In this document: positions 3,708 to 12,694 of the stretch, piece after piece
Layout: every line of letters starts with the position of its first letter
Position numbering within the stretch: the first letter of the stretch is position 1
Sequence record: SRR20825019_12
Direction: 5' to 3' (one strand)
DNA: 50,973 nucleotides
The notes under the pieces: model-generated
Databases searched by the model: none
Told to the model about the DNA's origin: nothing
What the model saw: only the letters and a program-made list of their open reading frames with translations
Made by a program: the position numbers and the translations under genes

Positions 3708-5609
3708 GTGAAACACAGTATCATTATTTTAAGTTTATTTTCCTGTTTTTGCCTATCCATCAACGCACAAGGCCGGGAAAAAGAATTGGATAGTTTGATC
3801 AATCATGCCGAGCAACTTCCAGAAAGCATTGAAAAAGCCCAAGTACTTTCCAGGATACACGAAAGGATGATGTTCTCGGACCCTGATCTGGCCCGGGACT
3901 ATGCCCAACAAGCATTTGACCTTTCAAAAAAACTGGACTACAAAAAAGGGGTTGGCAACGGGTATCTTCAATTCGGAAATTATTTTTCCAACCGTACAGA
4001 GAATGACTCTGCTACTTATTATTATAATCTCGCTTTGACCAAGTTCAAGGAAATAGAGTCCATCAGAGGGCAAATTTTCGCCAACCATTCCTTGGCCGGA
4101 ATTGAACGAGAAAAAGGAAACTACGATAAGGCCATTGAAATTACCCAAAGAAACATTGGTCTATATAATGATAAGAACCGGGATACTACAGATTTAAAGG
4201 AATTCAACTTGATCGGAGCAGAATATGAGGTTTTGGGGAGTGTCTACATGGACAAGGGCAATTATACCTTGGCACTAAATGAAACCTTGAATGCGCTACG
4301 TTTTTTTGAAGAGGTGGGAGACCAGGTACGAAAGGGCGATGCCCTATTGCAATTAGGACAGATTGAATACAAACTTGGAAATTTTGACGCATCCCTTACC
4401 TATGAAGAGGAGGCATTTGCCATTTATCGGGATGAAGGCGATAAGGTTTACCAATCCTACGCGGCAAACTATTCCGGGCTGGCCGCAGAAGCGCTCGGAA
4501 ATATGCAAAAAGCAGAGGAATACCAAAGAACTTCCATGGCCTTGGCAAAAGAAATGGGCGTAAAATCTGCACTGTCCACTGCCTTGCGGGATTTGGGTCG
4601 GATCTATGCTAAAAAAGGACAGTTAAATGATGCGAGGGCATTGCTCAAAGCGTCGTATCAGGAGGCTGAGGGCACTGGAATAAAATTGGACATGGCCTCC
4701 ACACTCAAAGAGTTGGCAAAAGTTGATTATAAAGCCAAAGAGTTTACTGAAGCGCTTAATAAAATGAACCGCGTAATTGAGATGGCCGAAGGTATTGGTG
4801 CGGCATCCATTCTAGGAGAATCTTACAAGGAACGTAGCGAGATCAATGAAAGCTTGGGCAAATACACCAATGCCATGACGGACCTAAAAACGTACCAAAT
4901 TATCAACGATAGTATTTTCAACAGTAAAAAGTCCCAACAAATCGAAGAACTAAAAACCATTTATGAAACCGAGAAAAAAGAAGCTGAAATTGCCCTGCAA
5001 GAAGAGGAAATCAACACCTTGAACGCAAAAGCCAAAGTGGACAAACTCACCAAAGGACTTTATGCCGGGGGCATGGCCTCTGCCCTGGCCCTCTCCGGAT
5101 TATTGGTATTCGGTTACCGACAAAGAATAAAGAAAAATAAAGTTGAACGCGAGAAGCAAGAGGAGATATACAAGCAGGAAATAGCCCACAAGAAAAAGGA
5201 ACTCACCAGTCAGACCCTGCATTTAGTGCAAAAGAACACCTTTATCCAAGAGTTGATGGAGAACTTGGAGAACATTAAAAATTCCCCGGAAAAGTTTAAA
5301 ATGGAGTTTAGGCGTATGGTAATGCTGCTCAAAAAAGAAAATGCCTCCGATAAGGATTGGGAAGTCTTCAAAACGTACTTTTCCGAGGTCCATAACGACT
5401 TTGACCAAAAACTCAAAACAATTTACCCCGACATCTCCGAAAAGGAAATCCGCTTGGCCGCCTTCCTGCGCATGAACCTGACTACTAAGGAAATAGCAGC
5501 AACTTTAAATGTACTTCCGGATAGCATCCTCAAGTCCAAGTACAGATTAAAAAAGAAGTTGGGATTGGAAAAGGATACCGATTTGTCCACTTTCCTAAAT
5601 ACGTTATAA
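3708..5609 (+). CDS. Membrane-anchored TPR-repeat sensor / LuxR-type HTH transcriptional regulator
   Basis: Signal peptide, TPR helices, TM segment (LYAGGMASALALSGLLVFGY), C-terminal ISEKEIRLAAFLRMNLTTKEIAATLNV...KYRLKKKL HTH; GTG start. Confidence 0.85.
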   Translation: MKHSIIILSLFSCFCLSINAQGREKELDSLINHAEQLPESIEKAQVLSRIHERMMFSDPDLARDYAQQAFDLSKKLDYKKGVGNGYLQFGNYFSNRTENDSATYYYNLALTKFKEIESIRGQIFANHSLAGIEREKGNYDKAIEITQRNIGLYNDKNRDTTDLKEFNLIGAEYEVLGSVYMDKGNYTLALNETLNALRFFEEVGDQVRKGDALLQLGQIEYKLGNFDASLTYEEEAFAIYRDEGDKVYQSYAANYSGLAAEALGNMQKAEEYQRTSMALAKEMGVKSALSTALRDLGRIYAKKGQLNDARALLKASYQEAEGTGIKLDMASTLKELAKVDYKAKEFTEALNKMNRVIEMAEGIGAASILGESYKERSEINESLGKYTNAMTDLKTYQIINDSIFNSKKSQQIEELKTIYETEKKEAEIALQEEEINTLNAKAKVDKLTKGLYAGGMASALALSGLLVFGYRQRIKKNKVEREKQEEIYKQEIAHKKKELTSQTLHLVQKNTFIQELMENLENIKNSPEKFKMEFRRMVMLLKKENASDKDWEVFKTYFSEVHNDFDQKLKTIYPDISEKEIRLAAFLRMNLTTKEIAATLNVLPDSILKSKYRLKKKLGLEKDTDLSTFLNTL

Positions 5610-5723
5610 AGTCATTTGTTCATTCTAGTTGTTGCTATCTAAAAGTACCTGCAAAACCATTGCACTGAGCTTTTGTTTTTCAAAGATATTTCAACGAACT
5701 TGGAAGCTAATAAAATCGACCAC

Positions 5724-7400
5724 TTGAAAACAACCAACTTTATCCTGCCCCTCCTCTTCTTATGTTTGATGAGCTGTCAAACCGAAAAGAAAGAGAACGC
5801 CACAGAAACCCCGACCAAAACCGAAAATTTCACTTCCAACGATTATCAAGATTTAGTAGCCTTATTTAAGGAATGGCGAACGTTCGAAAATCCTCCGATA
5901 TTGGACGGAGCTCCGGATTATACTGCCGAAACCTTCGAAAAGCGTTGGCCAACATTCAAAGAACTGCAATCCAAACTACAGGCCATCGACACCACCAATT
6001 GGTCCGTGGAAAACCAAGTGGATTGGATGATCGTTTGGGCCGAAATGAACGGCTACGACTTCAACCAGCGCGTTTTACAACCTTGGGTTCGCGATCCTGC
6101 TTTTTACAAAGTGGTCTGGACTGCCAAAAGCGATGTGCCCGCCCACGAAGGACCCACCAACCATGGCACCACGGAACTCTGGTCCTATAATTTTCCTTTA
6201 TCCACAGAGGAACGTTCCAGACTTCTGTCCGATTTAAAAGTGATTGCCCCTTTCTATACCCAAGCCAAGCAAAACTTGACAGGGAACGCTCGTGAGTTAT
6301 GGGTCACAGGAATCCGTGACATCAAAAACCAGAGCGAAGTGCTTACCGAGTTAAAAGAAAACGATGCCGTTACCAACGATACCGAATTGGTTGCCGTAAT
6401 CGACGAGGCCATTGCCTCCACCAACGACCTTGTTAGTTGGTTGGAGACCGAATCCGAGTCAAAAACCGGTCCATCGGGCATTGGCAAGGACAATTACACC
6501 TGGTATCTACAAAATGTACACTTGGTGCCGTTGACTTGGGAAGACGAAGTCATGATCCTAAAACGGGAACTCGCCCGTGCATGGACCTCCTTAAAATTGG
6601 TGGAACACAACAACAGGAACCTGCCGGAACTGGTGGATGCAGATTCTCCAGAGGCTTATGATAAAATGGCCGATGCATCCGCTAAAAGCCTGATGAACTT
6701 TTTGGAGCAACAGGACATTGTTACCGTAAAACCGTATTTCGACCCTGCCCTACGCGAGCATTTGGGCGAATTTGTCCCCAAGGCAAAACGGAATTTCTTC
6801 GCTATCGGGGAGCATTATGATGCCCGGCCCCTCTACTCCCATTTTTACCATTGGTTTGAGCTGGCGCGCATGGATTTGGAGCCCCATAAAAGTGAAATAC
6901 GGAAAGGTCCGTTATTGTACAATATTTGGGATTCCCGGAACGAAGGTACCGCCACGGCCGTGGAAGAAATGTTTATGCAGGCCGGTCTGTACAACGATAG
7001 CCCAAGAACCAAAGAAATCGTATACATAATGATCGCGCAGCGTGCGGCCAGAGGTTTGGGCTCATTGTACGCCCACGCCAACGAAATGACCATGGAAGAG
7101 GCCGGAGGCATCCACAGTGAATACACCCCGCGTGGTTGGATGAAGACCGAAAAGGAACTGCTCATTTTTGAGCAACACCTCTATTTGCGCCAACCGGGGT
7201 ATGGATCTAGCTATATTACCGGTAAATATTTATTGGAAGCCGCCTTGGCCGATTATGCCCGACAAAAAGAGCTACAGGGCGAGCCCTTTGCCCCAAAGGA
7301 CTTTTTTGATACGCTGAACAGCATTGGCAACATCCCGATTTCGTTGGGACATTGGCAAATGACGGGCTCCAAGGAGCATTTAAAGATAATTACAGAGTAA
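5724..7400 (+). CDS. DUF885-like lipoprotein (putative peptidase)
   Basis: TTG start giving lipobox [13 protein letters not shown] and [11 protein letters not shown] resemble DUF885 C-terminal motifs. Confidence 0.6.
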
Positions 7401-7449: not shown

Positions 7450-7491
7450 TAACCTTTCACCTTTTACCCTTCACCCTTTACCCATCACCCC
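7450..7491. repeat. Degenerate heptamer tandem repeat
   Basis: TAACCTT TCACCTT TTACCCT TCACCCT TTACCCA TCACCCC. Confidence 0.5.
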
Positions 7492-7762
7492 CCTCACCAA
7501 TAATCCACTCAATACACTCCCACAGCCCTTTTACGCTGAAGAGTGCATCCTTTTCTTCCTCATCAATAGGTTCGGTGGAGTGATACACGGCAATATCGTG
7601 CAGCAGTTTTAGGGATTGTACCAAATCGGGGCCATCCAAGGCATCGGCGTAGTCCAGCAATTGGATTTGTGCCGGGCTGAGCATTTGGGAAATTTTGGGA
7701 ACGCTTTGCGCATTGGCGCTACTGCAATATGGGCAGCTTTTTTGACCATCTTGTGTTGACAT
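7478..7762 (-). CDS. Small hypothetical protein (94 aa)
   Basis: ATG start preceded by an AT-rich leader; helical acidic C-half; lies downstream of a promoter-like TATATTTG. Confidence 0.55.
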   Translation of the reverse strand: MSTQDGQKSCPYCSSANAQSVPKISQMLSPAQIQLLDYADALDGPDLVQSLKLLHDIAVYHSTEPIDEEEKDALFSVKGLWECIEWIIGEGGDG

Positions 7763-7789
7763 AAGTAAGTAGGTTATTAATGAAACAAA

Positions 7790-7927
7790 AAGGGAAGGTC
7801 ACCGTCAACACATTCCAAGCAATGCTCAGATAGGTCTCGGGACTTACACCCGTATGCCTTCCCAGTTTTTTCTGTTTAAACCGATTTTGAAATTTTCGCA
7901 TTGCGAGATTATTAAAATGTGTTGACG
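7790..7927 (-). ncRNA. Putative structured leader/antisense RNA (C4/CI-like architecture)
   Basis: Closing stem GGGAAGG/CCTTCCC (7792-7798/7857-7863); hairpin CGGG-TGTAAGT-CCCG; internal AATGTGTTGACG complementary to both an upstream site and the start-codon site. Confidence 0.55.
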
Positions 7928-7930
7928 AAG

Positions 7931-7938
7931 CAAATATA
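7931..7938 (-). promoter_or_regulatory. Bacteroidota sigma70 -7 element
   Basis: TATATTTG on the minus strand matches TAnnTTTG, immediately before the RNA element. Confidence 0.55.
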
Positions 7939-8108
7939 CATTTTAAAATTATTGGTTAATAAATCTTGAAAAGTTTTGATTTTAACCTATTGGTTTTGAG
8001 GGAAATTTCGGTGAAATTAGAAAGCTAATAGTCGAAAGCAGCACTAATATTCCCATTTGGGGGTATAGAGATGTATTTTGTTTTTATATAAACGAGTTGC
8101 CATTAATT

Positions 8109-8768
8109 ATGGAAAAACCAGAAAATCCAAACAAAAAACTTGAATTAGTAATTAAAGATTCAGATTTGCCTTCACTTTCCAAAGATTTTGCCGAAGTAGC
8201 TATCGATGGAATAATGGATGAAGGAGTATTACAGGATTTACCATTAGTTGGAGGAATAGTTGGAGCCGTGAAATTTGGTAACTCAATCAACAAATACCTA
8301 TCTGCAAAAAAAATCTATAAATTTCTATTTGAACTTCATACAATTCCCCAGGAACAGAGGATAAAAAAGATTGACGAAATAAACAATTCTAGAAAATATC
8401 AAAGTAGTGTTGGAGAAATGATATTTGAACTTTTAGAGAAAATTGAGAGTGATGGAAAACCTGAAATACTCGGAAAATTATTCAAAGCGGTTATTGAGGA
8501 AAAAATAGATTATGAAACATATTTAAGACTTGCTCATATTGTCAAAAGATTATTCTATTATGATTTGGTTTGGCTAAAAAATAATTCTGAAGGTCTAAGA
8601 GTGAACGGAAGAATAAATGATGAATTATATACTAGCGGACTTATTACGCAGGATTTGGTTAACATCTACGAAAAAGCCAAGGAAATGAACAAAGACAGAA
8701 AACCGGATGTAAATGACCGAAGTTTGACTTATTTAGGAGATATGTTGATAAGTATCGGAATGAAATAA
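8109..8768 (+). CDS. Hypothetical protein (cassette-like, AT-rich)
   Basis: ATG 8109 directly after GTTGCCATTAATT; helical protein of ~219 aa; no confidently recognised family. Confidence 0.7.
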   Translation: MEKPENPNKKLELVIKDSDLPSLSKDFAEVAIDGIMDEGVLQDLPLVGGIVGAVKFGNSINKYLSAKKIYKFLFELHTIPQEQRIKKIDEINNSRKYQSSVGEMIFELLEKIESDGKPEILGKLFKAVIEEKIDYETYLRLAHIVKRLFYYDLVWLKNNSEGLRVNGRINDELYTSGLITQDLVNIYEKAKEMNKDRKPDVNDRSLTYLGDMLISIGMK

Positions 8769-8872
8769 CTACACACAACAATGCTATAAGTAATTGCTTG
8801 TCTTCTCCCCTAAACCAAATTCCCTACGTTTAAAAAACTAGACACGTATAGCCGAGGCCGCTACATACAATT
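8767..8872 (+). repeat. attC-like intergenic repeat copy A
   Basis: AACTACACACAAC-AATGCTATA...CCTAAACCAAATTCCCTA...TATAGCCGAGGCC-GCTACATACAATT. Confidence 0.65.
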
Positions 8873-8875
8873 ATT

Positions 8876-9571
8876 ATGAAAGACTCGATTTCATATTTTG
8901 AAAAGATAAATAAAGGAAGTGCTTTAATAGATCTTGGTTATAGAGATTATATTGCTGCTCGTGTATTACTTAATAAACATTTATTAGTTCAAGGATTAAC
9001 ACTTGCTAGTACCTCAGTTGAAAAATATCTTAAAGCAATAATTGTTTTAAATCTCAAAAAAAAAGAGCACTATCATTATCATTTAGACAGATTTGAATCA
9101 CTCAAAAAACTATTAAGTAAATTAAATAATGATGTGACCGAAGAATTTGATTCTATTTTCTTGGACATACTTCAAAATGCTTTTAGAATAAGATATTATG
9201 ATAAAATTAATAGACCAATTTTTATGGGATTCTATATAAATCAGTTTATTGGGGAATTAGATTTCACAGTTGACTTTATGGAAAAATATATCTATAGTTC
9301 TCAAAATGGTGGGTTTTCAATGACGAAATATTTTCAAGCAATTGAAAACAATGACACTCACCTTTATGAGAATAATTATATTCTTAAGAATGAAAATAAA
9401 AAAGAATTCATGGAAAGATCTGATATTGGATTTTCAATTTACATAAATACAGGACCTAAATTTCATAGAGAGAATGTCGTAAAAGGCGGTATTACAAAAA
9501 ATAAATATGATGGCGAAATATCAAAGTTCACTGATTTCAGTGAAACTATATTTTCAAATAATAGAAGATAA
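8876..9571 (+). CDS. HEPN-like domain protein
   Basis: RDYIAAR...LASTSVEKYLKA...HL..L...RY pattern typical of HEPN folds. Confidence 0.6.
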   Translation: MKDSISYFEKINKGSALIDLGYRDYIAARVLLNKHLLVQGLTLASTSVEKYLKAIIVLNLKKKEHYHYHLDRFESLKKLLSKLNNDVTEEFDSIFLDILQNAFRIRYYDKINRPIFMGFYINQFIGELDFTVDFMEKYIYSSQNGGFSMTKYFQAIENNDTHLYENNYILKNENKKEFMERSDIGFSIYINTGPKFHRENVVKGGITKNKYDGEISKFTDFSETIFSNNRR

Positions 9572-9618
9572 CATTGGCAATAATCCATTACCCCTCCTCC
9601 CCTAAACTAAAATTCCCT
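9560..9618 (+). repeat. attC-like intergenic repeat copy B (truncated)
   Basis: ..TAAC-ATTGGCAATAATCCATT..CCCTCCTCCCCTAAACTAAAATTCCCT, then interrupted by other repeats. Confidence 0.6.
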
Positions 9619-9666
9619 GCTACCGCAAGATTGTATCTTGTGTCCCACTTGGTTTACACCGTTCAT

Positions 9667-9759
9667 TGTCATTTCGACATGAGGAGCACTGCGACGATTG
9701 AGAAATCTCTTTTGCTTCTTCAGATTTCTCACACTCCCTTCGGTCGGTTCGAAATGACA
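9667..9759. repeat. REP-like hairpin element
   Basis: TGTCATTTCGA...GAGAAATCT...AGATTTCTC...TCGAAATGACA nested inverted repeats; homologous to 1619-1696 and 32781-32841. Confidence 0.8.
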
Positions 9760-9784
9760 ACGATTTTATTCCATTTAGGGAGGG

Positions 9785-9898
9785 TTACAACCAATGGCCA
9801 TAATCCATCGTCCCCTACCTCCTTAAACTAAATTCCCTATTTTTAAGAAAATAAATAACCAAAGGTCGAAATCATAGCCCAGACCGTTGTAAACAATT
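9785..9898 (+). repeat. attC-like intergenic repeat copy C
   Basis: TTACAAC-CAATGGCCATAATCCAT..CTTAAACTAAATTCCCTATTTTTAAG..CATAGCCCAGACC-GTTGTAAACAATT. Confidence 0.7.
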
Positions 9899-10312
9899 AT
9901 GAAAAAAATTATCATTCTTATTTTTCTAACTCAAATAGCTTATGGCCAAGACAGCTCTAATAACTCATTTGTTGGAAAGTGGGAAGTAGTTGAATCCTTC
10001 TCCAAAGGTCCTGACCAAGCGGTTTCAGATGAATATGAGCTCTCTCAAATATTCCTTGGCGGCTCAATTGATTTCAATTCTAATGGTAACTTCAAAATAG
10101 ACTTAAAAAGCGAAGGTGAGTTTGCCAAAGATTTAATCGAAATGACAATGGGCACAAAATGGAGATACAGTAAAGATTTGGACTGGATTATGGTGGGTAC
10201 AGAAGAGGATGACTATACTATTATCGGATTTCAACACTTTATTAAGGACAAAAAGTCTTATCTGAAAATACCTGAATCAGGAATTGTACTCCAAGTGAAA
10301 AAAATAAAATAA
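9899..10312 (+). CDS. Secreted hypothetical protein (lipocalin-like possible)
   Basis: Signal peptide; FVGKWEVV motif; beta-rich. Confidence 0.65.
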   Translation: MKKIIILIFLTQIAYGQDSSNNSFVGKWEVVESFSKGPDQAVSDEYELSQIFLGGSIDFNSNGNFKIDLKSEGEFAKDLIEMTMGTKWRYSKDLDWIMVGTEEDDYTIIGFQHFIKDKKSYLKIPESGIVLQVKKIK

Positions 10313-10385
10313 CTGTTTACAACACTGACCACAATTCATTGTTTCCCTCCTCCCCTAAACTAAATTCCCTACTTTTAAGAAAAGA
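10311..10385 (+). repeat. attC-like intergenic repeat copy D (left part)
   Basis: AACTGTTTACAAC-ACTGACCACAATTCATT..CCCTCCTCCCCTAAACTAAATTCCCTACTTTTAAG. Confidence 0.7.
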
Positions 10386-10391
10386 AGCATA

Positions 10392-10778
10392 ATGAAAATT
10401 GAACATATTGCTATTTGGACTTCAGATCTAGAAAAAATGAGAGATTTTTATCTGCGCTTTTTCGAATTGGAAGCCAACGAAAAATATTACAATCCAAAGA
10501 AAAAGTTCAGTTCCTATTTCCTCTCCTTTAAAAAAGGCGCACGCATCGAATTAATGCACAGGCCCGATATTTCAGAATTCATGGATAACAGGGACGCCCA
10601 ACTTGGCCTCACCCATTTTGCCATATCCGTGGGTTCAAAAGAAAAAGTGGATGCCCTTACCGAAACCATCCGCAAAAATGGATTTAAGGTCATCGGAGAA
10701 CCCAGAACCACTGGCGATGGCTATTACGAAAGTGTTATTGCCGACCCAGAGGGCAATTGGATTGAAATAACGGAGTAA
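10392..10778 (+). CDS. VOC/glyoxalase family protein
   Basis: MKIEHIAIW...IELM...HFAISVG...DPEGNWIEI motifs. Confidence 0.9.
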   Translation: MKIEHIAIWTSDLEKMRDFYLRFFELEANEKYYNPKKKFSSYFLSFKKGARIELMHRPDISEFMDNRDAQLGLTHFAISVGSKEKVDALTETIRKNGFKVIGEPRTTGDGYYESVIADPEGNWIEITE

Positions 10779-10835
10779 CTGGTTTTCGAAAACCCAAACA
10801 ATTACAGATAACAGCTACCCACAGCAACAATATAT

Positions 10836-11417
10836 ATGAAAGAGGGACTCATTACATCAATATCCCAATACATTACCTTAAGTTCCGAAGAAGCCCGTTC
10901 AATAGAAACGTTTTGGACGGAGAAAACCCTTAAGAAAGGAGATTATCTGTTGCGAAATGGGCAAACTTGCCGCACCGATAATTTTGTGGTGAACGGTGCT
11001 TTAAAGGCTTTTTACATCAACCCCGAAACGGGAAAGGAAGAGATCCTATATTTTGCGATTGAAAATTGGTGGGCAACGGATATTGAAAGTTTTCAAAAAC
11101 AAAAACCTTCCATCTACAACATTCAAGCCATTGAGGACACCACTTTGCTACAAATCAGCCACGGTTCTTTTCAGGAAATGCTAAGTCAGCTACCAAAATT
11201 GGAACGCTTTTTTAGAATCATCCTCGAAAATTATCTGGGAAGTTTGCAGAAAAGAATCATCTTGAATAAAACCCTCGACGCTGAAAAACGCTATTTGGAT
11301 TTTATGGAGAACTATCCCAAAATCGCCGAAAAAGTTCCCAACTATCTTATTGCTTCGTATTTGGGCATTTCTGCTGAATTTTTAAGCAGAATTCGAAAAA
11401 AAATCGATGCATCTTGA
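10836..11417 (+). CDS. Crp/Fnr family transcriptional regulator
   Basis: cNMP-binding region and C-terminal IASYLGISAEFLSRIRK HTH. Confidence 0.9.
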   Translation: MKEGLITSISQYITLSSEEARSIETFWTEKTLKKGDYLLRNGQTCRTDNFVVNGALKAFYINPETGKEEILYFAIENWWATDIESFQKQKPSIYNIQAIEDTTLLQISHGSFQEMLSQLPKLERFFRIILENYLGSLQKRIILNKTLDAEKRYLDFMENYPKIAEKVPNYLIASYLGISAEFLSRIRKKIDAS

Positions 11418-11427
11418 ACTAGGTCAA
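11414..11427. promoter_or_regulatory. Crp/Fnr-type palindromic site
   Basis: TTGA-ACTAGG-TCAA overlapping the regulator stop codon, upstream of the azoreductase. Confidence 0.65.
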
Positions 11428-11482
11428 TTTTTTTCATTTTCCGGATTCGGAATTTTGTCTCGTAATCAAAAATTTATGAATT

Positions 11483-12106
11483 ATGAACAAAGTATTGATC
11501 ATCAACGCAAGTGTGCGAAAGGAAAGATCGCACAGTAGAAAGCTGACACAACTTTTCGAAAAAAATTGGCAAAAGAAACACCCGAACGATGTTTTTACAT
11601 ACCGAGAAGTAGGACTGGAAGAAATACCGCCAATAAATGAAAAATGGATTTCGAGTGCATTCATCAAACCCAGTGAAAGAACAAAAGAAAACCAGTCAGG
11701 TGTTGCCCTTAGCGATGCATTGGTAAAAGAGTTCAAAGCTCATGATGTTTATGTTTTGGGAACACCCATGTACAATTGGTCCATTCCAAGCGGACTAAAG
11801 GCTTACATTGACCAACTTATGCGTATCAACGAAACTTGGAAATTTCGTTCAGGTAAACCCGACGGAAATTATGTGGGTATGCTTGAAAACAAGAAAATGT
11901 TCATACTATCAAGTCGTGGTGACACAGGTTATGGAGAAAACGAAAAAAATGGACATATGAATTTCCAAACAACCTATTTAAAGTTCGTTTTTGGAATTAT
12001 GGGCATAAAAGACATTTCGATAATCTCCTTGGACAACGAAGAGTTTGGTGGGGAACTATTTGAGAACTCAAAGAGAGAAATTTACCAAAAGATGGAACAG
12101 ATTTAA
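11483..12106 (+). CDS. azoR: FMN-dependent NADH-azoreductase (flavodoxin-like)
   Basis: INASVR..SHSR, PMYNWSIPSGLKAYID and SSRG motifs. Confidence 0.8.
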   Translation: MNKVLIINASVRKERSHSRKLTQLFEKNWQKKHPNDVFTYREVGLEEIPPINEKWISSAFIKPSERTKENQSGVALSDALVKEFKAHDVYVLGTPMYNWSIPSGLKAYIDQLMRINETWKFRSGKPDGNYVGMLENKKMFILSSRGDTGYGENEKNGHMNFQTTYLKFVFGIMGIKDISIISLDNEEFGGELFENSKREIYQKMEQI

Positions 12107-12148
12107 AACTGTTACGGAAAAAGAGATAATTGATTTTGCTCCACTTAA

Positions 12149-12175
12149 CCTAAACTTAATTCCCTAATTTTATGA
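12149..12175 (+). repeat. Degenerate core of the array repeat (copy E)
   Basis: CCTAAACTTAATTCCCTAATTTTATG. Confidence 0.5.
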
Positions 12176-12289
12176 AAATTAAGATTTCCTCCCATGGCAT
12201 TTGTGTTGGCCCGTTAGCCTTTGATGGCAAAGCTGCGTATCTTTGTGGAAAAGAAATTGGCTTTCCACTTCTTAGGGAATGACTGCATT

Positions 12290-12694
12290 ATGGAAAACAA
12301 AAAAATAATCTTGTTCGATGGCGTTTGCAACTTGTGCAACAGTTCTGTCCAGTTTGTGATCAAACGGGACAAAAAGGATGTGTTTCGTTATGCCGCATTG
12401 CAAAGTGAAATCGGTCAAGAATTGGTGAACCAACGTCAAATAGACACCAGTAAGGTGGATTCCATTATCCTAATTGAACCGGGTGTGGCCTACTACACCA
12501 AATCGGATGCCGCCTTGGAAATTGCCCAAGACCTCGGTGGATTATGGAAGCTGACCGCAATTTTTACATGGATACCCACTTCCATCAGAAACAGCATTTA
12601 CGATTTTGTGGCCCGAAATCGCTACAAATGGTTCGGAAAACAAGAGGCTTGTATGATTCCTACGCCCGAATTAAAGGCCAAGTTTTTGGACTGA
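12290..12694 (+). CDS. DCC family thiol-disulfide oxidoreductase (DUF393)
   Basis: ILFDGVCNLC and YDFVARNRYKWFG motifs. Confidence 0.9.
   Translation: MENKKIILFDGVCNLCNSSVQFVIKRDKKDVFRYAALQSEIGQELVNQRQIDTSKVDSIILIEPGVAYYTKSDAALEIAQDLGGLWKLTAIFTWIPTSIRNSIYDFVARNRYKWFGKQEACMIPTPELKAKFLD

Follow-up and report, generated by a model that had tools for sequence, protein, structure and literature searches.

Here we analyze an integron-like array of co-oriented genes in a 50,973-nucleotide stretch of DNA from sequence record SRR20825019_12, referred to below, as a whole, as the window. Positions 8034-12219 of the window very probably hold an orphan array of gene cassettes, in part decayed. It would belong to an integron-like system for gene capture that occurs in marine flavobacteria and their relatives and works with an enzyme other than the classical integron integrase. 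In textbooks, integrons are the way in which bacteria capture and shuffle single genes, and they are defined by one special integrase. To our knowledge, they are regarded as nearly absent from the Bacteroidetes phylum.

Five homologous elements lie between the eight same-strand genes of positions 8081-12180 (A, 8762-8875; B, 9555-9625; C, 9780-9898; D, 10305-10390 and E, 12105-12185, all on the + strand), placed as claimed by the first-pass annotation, which had read them as attC-like sites. Their similarity is beyond chance, as an 18-nt core (up to 3 mismatches) yields 4 matches vs 0.06 expected, a number reached in 0/100 shuffles. A profile hidden Markov model (HMM) of the left part of the element, searched with nhmmer, detects exactly 8 copies across the genome (4.4 Mb; E from 1e-7 to 3.5e-15), 5 of them in the window and 3 at C1:313-315.5 kb, with the next matches at E of at least 2; Rfam at gathering thresholds gives no match in the whole window. 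The left ends of A, B and D do end in AAC, as proposed, and overlap or abut stop codons (at 8779, 9572 and 10323), and the inner pair GCTATA/TATAGC noticed in that annotation turned out to be the conserved stem L''/L' described below. Concerning the three right ends of the form G(T/C)T-N6-AATT that precede an ATG, the one at 9886 is a GTT-bearing R' box and that at 8860 a degenerate one (GCT), but that at 8096 is an attI-like junction and not part of an attC. All array genes are on the + strand, and the G+C content across 8000-12200 is 27-41% vs 40-50% in the left flank, dropping to 27-33% in the first cassettes. Pfam families found in the cargo are glyoxalase, cNMP-binding, flavodoxin-like, DCC1 and a weak HEPN, while two open reading frames (ORFs) have no family.

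Two models were built, a sequence model of the window-type element (R1) and a structured hairpin model (R2). In the R2 scan of the window site C scores 35.1 bits (E 1.2e-7; it also has rbox and lbox HMM matches, and is the only site with both arms intact) and site A 16.2 bits (E 0.007), while B, D and E are left halves and give no match. Hence, the partial decay suggested from the letters alone holds, with only C and, weakly, A keeping both arms. The truncations are old, since they are common across species: truncated D precedes the glyoxalase gene in 5/5 species carrying that gene, and the truncation of B, with its neighbouring repeat, is also present in G023 (L041). The terminal element of site E and the downstream sequence recur in G019 (L045).

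The complete architecture of the sites is observed in relatives, from which 61 distinct elements were obtained at the fetched loci, 37 of the 41 full-length ones found being kept. The common plan, about 100-190 nt long, starts with R'' (nnnnnnAAC), separated by 3 nt from L'' (GGCTATAA..); a centre that varies then leads to L' (..TCATAGCC), and 6 spacing nucleotides (GAGACC) lie between L' and the final R' (GTTnnnnnn). Two kinds of centre occur, type-1, which is the window's kind, non-palindromic and genus-specific, and type-2, about 138 nt long and palindromic. As for a promoter within the type-1 centre, TACTTTTA resembles a -7 box, and no TTG is found at the right distance (by eye, against the -33/-7 consensus of Bacteroidetes), so this reading is not supported. 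Folded as single-stranded DNA, a type-2 site (L027) gives -26.7 kcal/mol (z -6.0) for the top and -32.8 kcal/mol (z -7.2) for the bottom strand; the R stem counts 9-12 bp and the L stem 16 bp, with 3 nt bulged out. The L stem covaries: in 21 aligned sites 92.6% of its positions are paired and 8 of the 16 pairs show compensatory changes, with both sides changed. The covariation score was reached by 0/500 shuffles, a control that overstates the support because the sequences are related; stronger are the distinct compensatory pairs and a second control, in which sliding the partner by 1-3 columns lowers the pairing from 80% to 30-53%. Among the sites, the core reads GTTGTAA, GTTGGCA, GTTAGCA or GTTGGGC, while the canonical core of integron attC sites is GTTRRRY/RYYYAAC.

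In integrons, what follows GTT is the start of the next cassette downstream and matches the R'' of that same cassette. The same relation was examined here for adjacent sites over the fetched loci, with 14/70 left boxes lacking AAC and 8/43 right boxes lacking GTT excluded beforehand. The six bases after the GTT of one site perfectly complement the six before the AAC of the next in 9/17 adjacent pairs, against 2/21 within one site and 1.7% in the all-against-all comparison, and the observed mean complementarity was reached by 0/10000 permutations. This complementarity between sites is the G/TT cassette signature of integrons. Among the perfect cases is the window pair 9886-9894 and 10315-10323 (GTTGTAAAC and GTTTACAAC), which delimits cassette 9887-10323: its 5' end TTGTAAAC.. 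and its 3' end ..GTTTACAAC are exact complements, within an inverted repeat (I17) of 15 nt with 1 mismatch whose outer bases are complementary 6/6. A homologue of the ORF it carries (family F11) is found in G009, within a different array context.

Concerning the start of the array, in six hotspot loci the sequence that separates a small divergent ORF from the first cassette stays conserved up to ...TATATAAACGA followed by GTT, and diverges beyond. The same 55-60 nt occur directly behind the recombinase genes of L062, L063, L067, L050 and L048. In the corresponding alignment (A3), which includes the hotspot sites of L043, L014, L035 and L019, mean column identity is 78% and homology stops after GTT. 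No recombinase gene adjoins the window's copy, and since that copy is homologous to the recombinase-adjacent sites, window 8034-8098 is, as judged from this alignment, a putative attI-like insertion site without its recombinase. In 9/9 recombinase loci, a reverse-complemented copy of the 9-nt R'' of the first site detected is found upstream of that site, giving the predicted 5' boundary of a cassette. In 8/9, including the second locus of this genome, the predicted boundary lies 40-125 nt past the recombinase stop and is that of the first cassette, and in L062 it marks a later cassette.

The insertion point is shared by loci of variable content. R1 matches 21/36 other genomes of the genus and, outside the genus, gives one weak match in 24 genomes. 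In G018, 9 of the 10 matches listed form one same-strand array of about 9.5 kb, and in G023, 6 matches lie on the same strand over about 8.5 kb. When the ORFs of six arrays, from six species, were clustered, cassette content and order were found to differ between common flanks, the outcome that the first-pass annotation had asked for in support of its reading; further copies that flank variable single genes are found as well, in the genus with R1 and in 53/151 genomes of the order with R2. The left flank, an approximately 547-residue gene and the small divergent ORF (families F01 and F00), is common to 6/6 loci; the right flank, with DCC1, 435-, 354- and 238-residue genes (families F04, F05, F06 and F07), is common, as far as the fetched stretches reach, to the window, L043 and L045; and the genes between the flanks are all on one strand in the six loci. 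The glyoxalase gene (window 10392-10778) is the only one common to five arrays, with different neighbours each time, and the first ORF of the window array (8109-8768) has no homologue in the other five arrays compared.

As for the enzyme, no protein above the cut-off of the canonical IntI profile (TIGR02249) was found in this genome (0/1), the genus (0/101 genomes) or the order (0/151 genomes). Recombinases adjoining the arrays match best NF040815, the NCBIfam model of a site-specific tyrosine recombinase/integron integrase (206-229 bits, cut-off 220), while the IntI model gives 197-216 bits with a cut-off of 265. They match TIGR02249 in two pieces, skipping model positions from about 180 to 238, and alignment with VchIntIA (2a3v) is likewise in two pieces, the IntI-specific region having 26 residues here vs 69. 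Hence, the IntI-specific segment is absent from this recombinase family. By sequence, the recombinase of relatives matches XerA with 146 bits, VchIntIA with 138 and XerD with 96; by fold, XerA and VchIntIA are the nearest, with E of about 1e-16 to 1e-17. In the long form (375-417 residues), which is located upstream of the array and co-oriented with it, the N-terminus bears an additional alpha/beta domain; for each of the 7 genes of this form that were examined, sites on its own strand are found 0.9-5 kb downstream. The short form (about 284 residues) is divergent from the array; divergent sites were detected with the HMM scan for 4/5 of its genes, and the fifth (L053/L058) has one by motif search only. 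The trans mobilization postulated by the first-pass annotation can thus be restated: a cassette system is present, its recombinase adjoins arrays and co-occurs with them as had been suggested, and the enzyme left without identity there is likely a member of this Xer/XerA/IntI-like family without the IntI-specific domain, an assignment made by association. Named close homologues in the databases are from Maribacter, Lacinutrix, Croceitalea, Cellulophaga, Arenibacter and Pricia, and their identity of 78-96% across genera suggests horizontal spread of the family.

The N-terminal domain of the long form (about 75 residues; L046 1162-1476 and homologues) is modelled confidently, with a predicted local distance difference test score (pLDDT) of about 90, as beta-beta-alpha-beta-beta-alpha-beta. 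Pfam up to E 10 returns nothing but a chance-level domain of unknown function, and no fold of the PDB reaches E of 0.001 or lower, the best having E 0.048; weak fold matches to XPB-DRD and HARP-like proteins were not taken as evidence. The domain may hence be a new DNA-recognition module.

Regarding distribution in the order, R2 matches 53/151 genomes (this genome included) from 33/59 genera. Sites together with the recombinase are found in 29 genomes, sites only in 24, the recombinase only in 7 and neither in 91, an odds ratio of about 16, to be read with the caveat that kin are not independent and that many assemblies break at repeats. Where sites and recombinase share a contig, they are co-oriented and within 12 kb in 11/13 cases. 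The family is present in 101/201 genomes of the class (E of 1e-45 or lower; the count includes one genome flagged as unpublished, G342). In another order (L092 and L093), a 39-41% identical recombinase heads arrays with GC-rich hairpin sites that are unrelated in sequence; these arrays show the same complementarity between one R' and the next R'', for example GTTGTCGCAA and then TTGCGACAAC.

The sole member of the family in this genome (L009 2257-3135) lies 190 kb from the window array and heads a second array. It is 80% identical to that of a relative and has an in-frame deletion of about 80 residues in the core-binding domain. Since the only copy carries this deletion and is so far away, the window array is most likely frozen. 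Several features of the second array deserve mention. An IS110-family element (L009 4834-6171; G000:C1:306833-308170; transposase 4899-5834, minus strand) lies in an attC-like site, between R'' and L'', and two other genomes (L011 and L032) share its right-hand junction, which points to an IS110-family insertion sequence that targets these sites. In integrons, insertion sequences at attC are known from the IS1111-attC group. A mini site of 35 nt between the DinB and GNAT cassettes (L009 6681-6715) keeps R'', a stub of L'' and R', the stem-loop being gone, and both cassettes beside it retain perfect end complementarity. A methyltransferase-like frame with an in-frame stop (L009 10412-11014), located before type-1 site F, is probably a pseudogene.

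The mechanism that we propose is the following. Cassettes are single promoterless genes, each ending in a site of the form R''-L''-centre-L'-R'. We infer that this site folds in vivo as a single-stranded hairpin, the bottom strand better than the top, and that a tyrosine recombinase, presumably of the above family, cuts next to the GTT/AAC triplet. The circular cassette would then insert at the GTT of the attI-like site or of another attC-like site, so that after insertion the bases following GTT would be those of the downstream cassette, matching its own R''. In the window, the loss of right halves in three of the five sites would have fused neighbouring genes into immobile blocks. At 10392..12106 (+), three genes follow each other with no intervening site.

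Several observations weigh against this interpretation. The window's own sites fold no better than shuffles (z of -0.3 and 0.0 for A, and from -2.4 to +1.3 over A, C and sites F and H of the second locus), and only C is convincing under the structured model, hence the hairpin reading rests on the relatives; the bottom-strand folding proposed earlier thus holds for their full-length sites and does not for those of the window, and the view of the window copies as functional hairpins was abandoned. The type-1 centre (CCTAAACTAAATTCCCTAC..) is conserved yet non-palindromic, which the model does not explain. R' and R'' are non-complementary in 8/17 adjacent pairs, and cassette 1 does not match the attI junction, which would mean that this end is decayed or rearranged. 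The genomes compared are related, so that counts of genomes overstate independence. Excision or insertion was not directly seen in the contigs of four public runs (X16-X19), which over 7700-12300 break at repeats and give no cassette-precise joint; the sole joint, from 8020 to 9614 (one contig, side 34), is ambiguous and away from the R boxes, and both this joint and several loose contig ends at 10333 and 10382 reflect the repeat in other contexts and are no proof of excision. The 24 public runs listed include no RNA run. Finally, 24/53 site-bearing genomes lack a recombinase of this family, and the array-rich G018, G016 and G242 hold only Xer-like proteins of about 100-117 bits, which suggests that arrays can persist without a family member, or be served in trans.

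This last point leads to an alternative in which the cassette logic is real and another enzyme, the housekeeping XerC/XerD or a different one, acts on the sites, the adjoining Xer-like gene being a passenger or first cassette. The dif-like modules of Acinetobacter plasmids are served by XerC/XerD, every genome examined here has two or three Xer-like genes of about 300 residues, and in six genomes hotspot arrays with attI have no recombinase nearby. However, the position and orientation of the recombinase relative to attI are fixed in 9/9 loci, its co-occurrence with sites is strong, and its homologues head arrays with unrelated site sequences in another order, which makes this alternative improbable.

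Still less probable is that the elements are passive repeats, similar to repetitive extragenic palindromic (REP) sequences or miniature inverted-repeat transposable elements (MITEs), or a duplicated promoter or 5' untranslated region (UTR), with differences between loci arising via homologous recombination and indels. It would agree with the window copies, whose conserved non-palindromic centre lies just upstream of start codons and which show no folding, with truncated D, which accompanies the glyoxalase gene in the manner of a 5' UTR, and with the presence of a genuine REP-like repeat in the same region. However, a MITE should have inverted repeats within the element and direct target duplications, whereas here pairing is found between neighbours and rarely within a site; the copies are confined to same-strand arrays, 8 in the whole genome, and not scattered; and neither the covariation of the L stem nor an attI homology that ends exactly at GTT is expected from passive repeats.

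The least probable alternative, a remnant of a classical integron with ordinary attC sites moved by a canonical IntI since lost or located elsewhere, accounts for the R''/L''/L'/R' layout, the AAC/GTT triplets, bottom-strand folding and cassette-end complementarity, but not for arrays that start at an attI directly behind a recombinase without the IntI segment, for an R-L spacing of 3 nt vs 6 nt, or for the cores GTTGTAA and GTTGGCA in place of GTTRRRY. Clusters without integrase (CALINs) are common among integrons, according to the accessible text of PMC9024848, yet no IntI passes the cut-off in the genus or the order, though a third of the order genomes carry sites. We therefore retain the integron-like cassette system with its own recombinase family as the preferred reading.

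The features of both arrays are collected in Table 1. The ORF at 7478-7762, whose homologues flank the array start in all hotspot loci compared, was considered as a hidden recombinase and rejected, having 94 residues and no Pfam family. The repeat between sites B and C has arms GTCATTTCGA and TCGAAATGAC and inner pair GAGAAATCT, with at least 22 exact-arm copies genome-wide, some of them in tandem (C46:42930-43278), and the arrangement of B, repeat and C is also found in G023. One 14-nt arm (9664-9677) is perfectly complementary to 10137-10150, inside ORF 9899-10312, which could be chance or a target relationship. Window 14781-50972 differs from G000:C1 at 23 positions, at least 5 of them within the last 30 bases of the window.

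Table 1. Features of the window array (window positions) and of the second array of the same genome (L009 positions).
Feature	Position	Strand	Remarks
Small conserved ORF, 94 aa	7478..7762	-	No Pfam family; left chromosomal flank marker, divergent from array
attI-like site (putative)	8034..8098	+	Conserved to ...TATATAAACGA, then GTT; junction G8096/T8097
Cassette 1 ORF, 219 aa	8109..8768	+	No known family; G+C 27-33%
Site A	8769..8868	+	R'' CTACACACAAC ends 8779, then L'' GCTATAAGTAATTGC; type-1 centre 8806-8840
Site A, right part			L' ..GTATAGCCGAGGCC ends 8859; degenerate R' GCTACATAC at 8860-8868
Cassette 2 ORF, 231 aa	8876..9571	+	Weak HEPN-like Pfam match, E 0.0036, below cut-off
Site B, left half only	9560..9618	+	R'' ..AGATAAC ends 9572, then L'' and centre; without L' and R'
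Palindromic REP/MITE-like repeat	9619..9782		Unrelated to sites, inserted between B and C; arms 9666-9675 and 9751-9760
Site C, both arms intact	9783..9894	+	R'' GGTTACAAC 9783-9791; L'' 9792-9810; L' 9866-9885; R' GTTGTAAAC 9886-9894
Intact cassette	9887..10323	+	ORF 9899-10312, 137 aa, N-terminal hydrophobic leader
Site D, left half and centre	10313..10385	+	Joined straight to glyoxalase gene; L' and R' deleted
Glyoxalase/VOC gene	10392-10778	+	Pfam
cNMP-binding Crp-like regulator	10836-11417	+	Pfam
Flavodoxin-like FMN reductase	11483-12106	+	Pfam
Site E, degenerate	12105..12219	+	Centre 12149-12166; 33.8 bits by nhmmer; R'-like CCGTTAGCC (by eye) at 12211-12219, right edge of array
DCC1-like thiol-disulfide oxidoreductase	12290..12694	+	Pfam PF04134, 1.9e-33; family F04; conserved right flank or last fixed cassette
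Second array, attI junction	L009 ~3247
Second array, attC	L009 4181-4318
Second array, next			Cassette with attC split by IS110-family element, then DinB cassette
Second array, 35-nt mini site, GNAT cassette, then attC	L009 7214-7352		Position is that of the attC
Second array, beyond			Glyoxalase, YjbR and AHSA1 genes with three type-1 sites among them

The closest published relatives of the system are integrons with CALINs, and the rAID arrays of gut Bacteroidales. Likeness to integrons is found in the co-oriented, mostly single-gene, promoterless cassettes, each ending in an imperfect palindromic R''/L''/L'/R' site with AAC...GTT, in the crossover next to GTT, the attI-like insertion point and the better folding of the bottom strand, in an IS110-family element within a site, and in a cargo of glyoxalase, GNAT, DinB and SRPBCC genes, which is typical of chromosomal integrons. 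Differences are a recombinase without the IntI-specific domain, scoring below the cut-off of the IntI model, a long form with an extra N-terminal domain that is co-oriented with the array, R-L spacers of 3 and 6 nt that leave a 3-nt bulge, and cores deviating from GTTRRRY. In function the system is that of an integron, but the definition excludes it, since the defining integrase domain was looked for and is absent. As compared with CALINs, the window has two two-armed sites (A and C) and three half-sites in 4.1 kb, with the nearest recombinase of the family 190 kb off and broken; since its sites may not be attC in the sense of IntegronFinder, the correspondence is one of analogy only. With respect to XerA and Xer proteins (PDB 4a8e, 5hxy and 1a0p), the recombinase of the relatives is alike in sequence and fold, but it has an additional N-terminal domain and stands at the head of cassette arrays, whereas the role of Xer proteins is to resolve dimers of the chromosome at dif. 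For the phylum Bacteroidetes, what the accessible part of Neron et al. (2022, PMC9024848) records is limited to In0 elements and one complete integron (Salinibacter), and that of PMC8618304 names Bacteroidota among phyla with integrons and gives no detail.

The rAID-1 arrays are described, in the part of Ross et al. (2019, 10.1101/471110) available, as having an XerD-like recombinase at the 5' side and co-oriented genes of low G+C content, with repeats in the intergenic regions that are "reminiscent of integrons", and the mechanism of their formation is called an open question in the accessible text of a 2025 preprint (PMC12247911). They come from the same host class, where the above recombinase family is widespread. 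At least two co-oriented downstream genes with G+C of 41% or lower, part of the definition of a rAID, are found in the window as well; the definition also requires that the 5' XerD-like recombinase share at least 44% identity with BF9343_RS08045, and the window has no recombinase. Their cargo consists of orphan immunity genes against secreted toxins, while here it is metabolic, regulatory or without known function; Pfam finds no orphan immunity gene in the window, where no scan with immunity-family profiles was made. The accessible text of the two rAID accounts (10.1101/471110; PMC12247911), supplements with the rAID motifs aside, contains no hairpin, R-box or crossover model. Concerning the flavobacterial arrays, we found no description in the literature, the search covering neither subscription journals nor supplements. 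Hence, the claim of an undescribed system stands for these arrays, while a system of this kind is partly in print, as rAID, for Bacteroidales.

We lean towards a broader view, that Bacteroidia carry a second great lineage of integrons, with an Xer/XerA/IntI-like recombinase that lacks the IntI-specific domain (its long form having an N-terminal domain of its own), an attI and hairpin sites cut next to GTT, and that flavobacterial arrays, orphan attI hotspots and rAID arrays are one system, although our confidence in it is well below that in the cassette array itself. If these readings hold, the formation of rAID could be explained by a mechanism open to testing, based on hairpin sites, a crossover at GTT and attI, the IntI-specific domain would not be needed for the capture of cassettes in the manner of integrons, and much of Bacteroidia would use the same cassette logic with another recombinase, in arrays that standard integron finders would miss. 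For the window itself, a low-G+C, species-specific block of small genes would be explained as a frozen cassette array whose insertion site is still recognisable.

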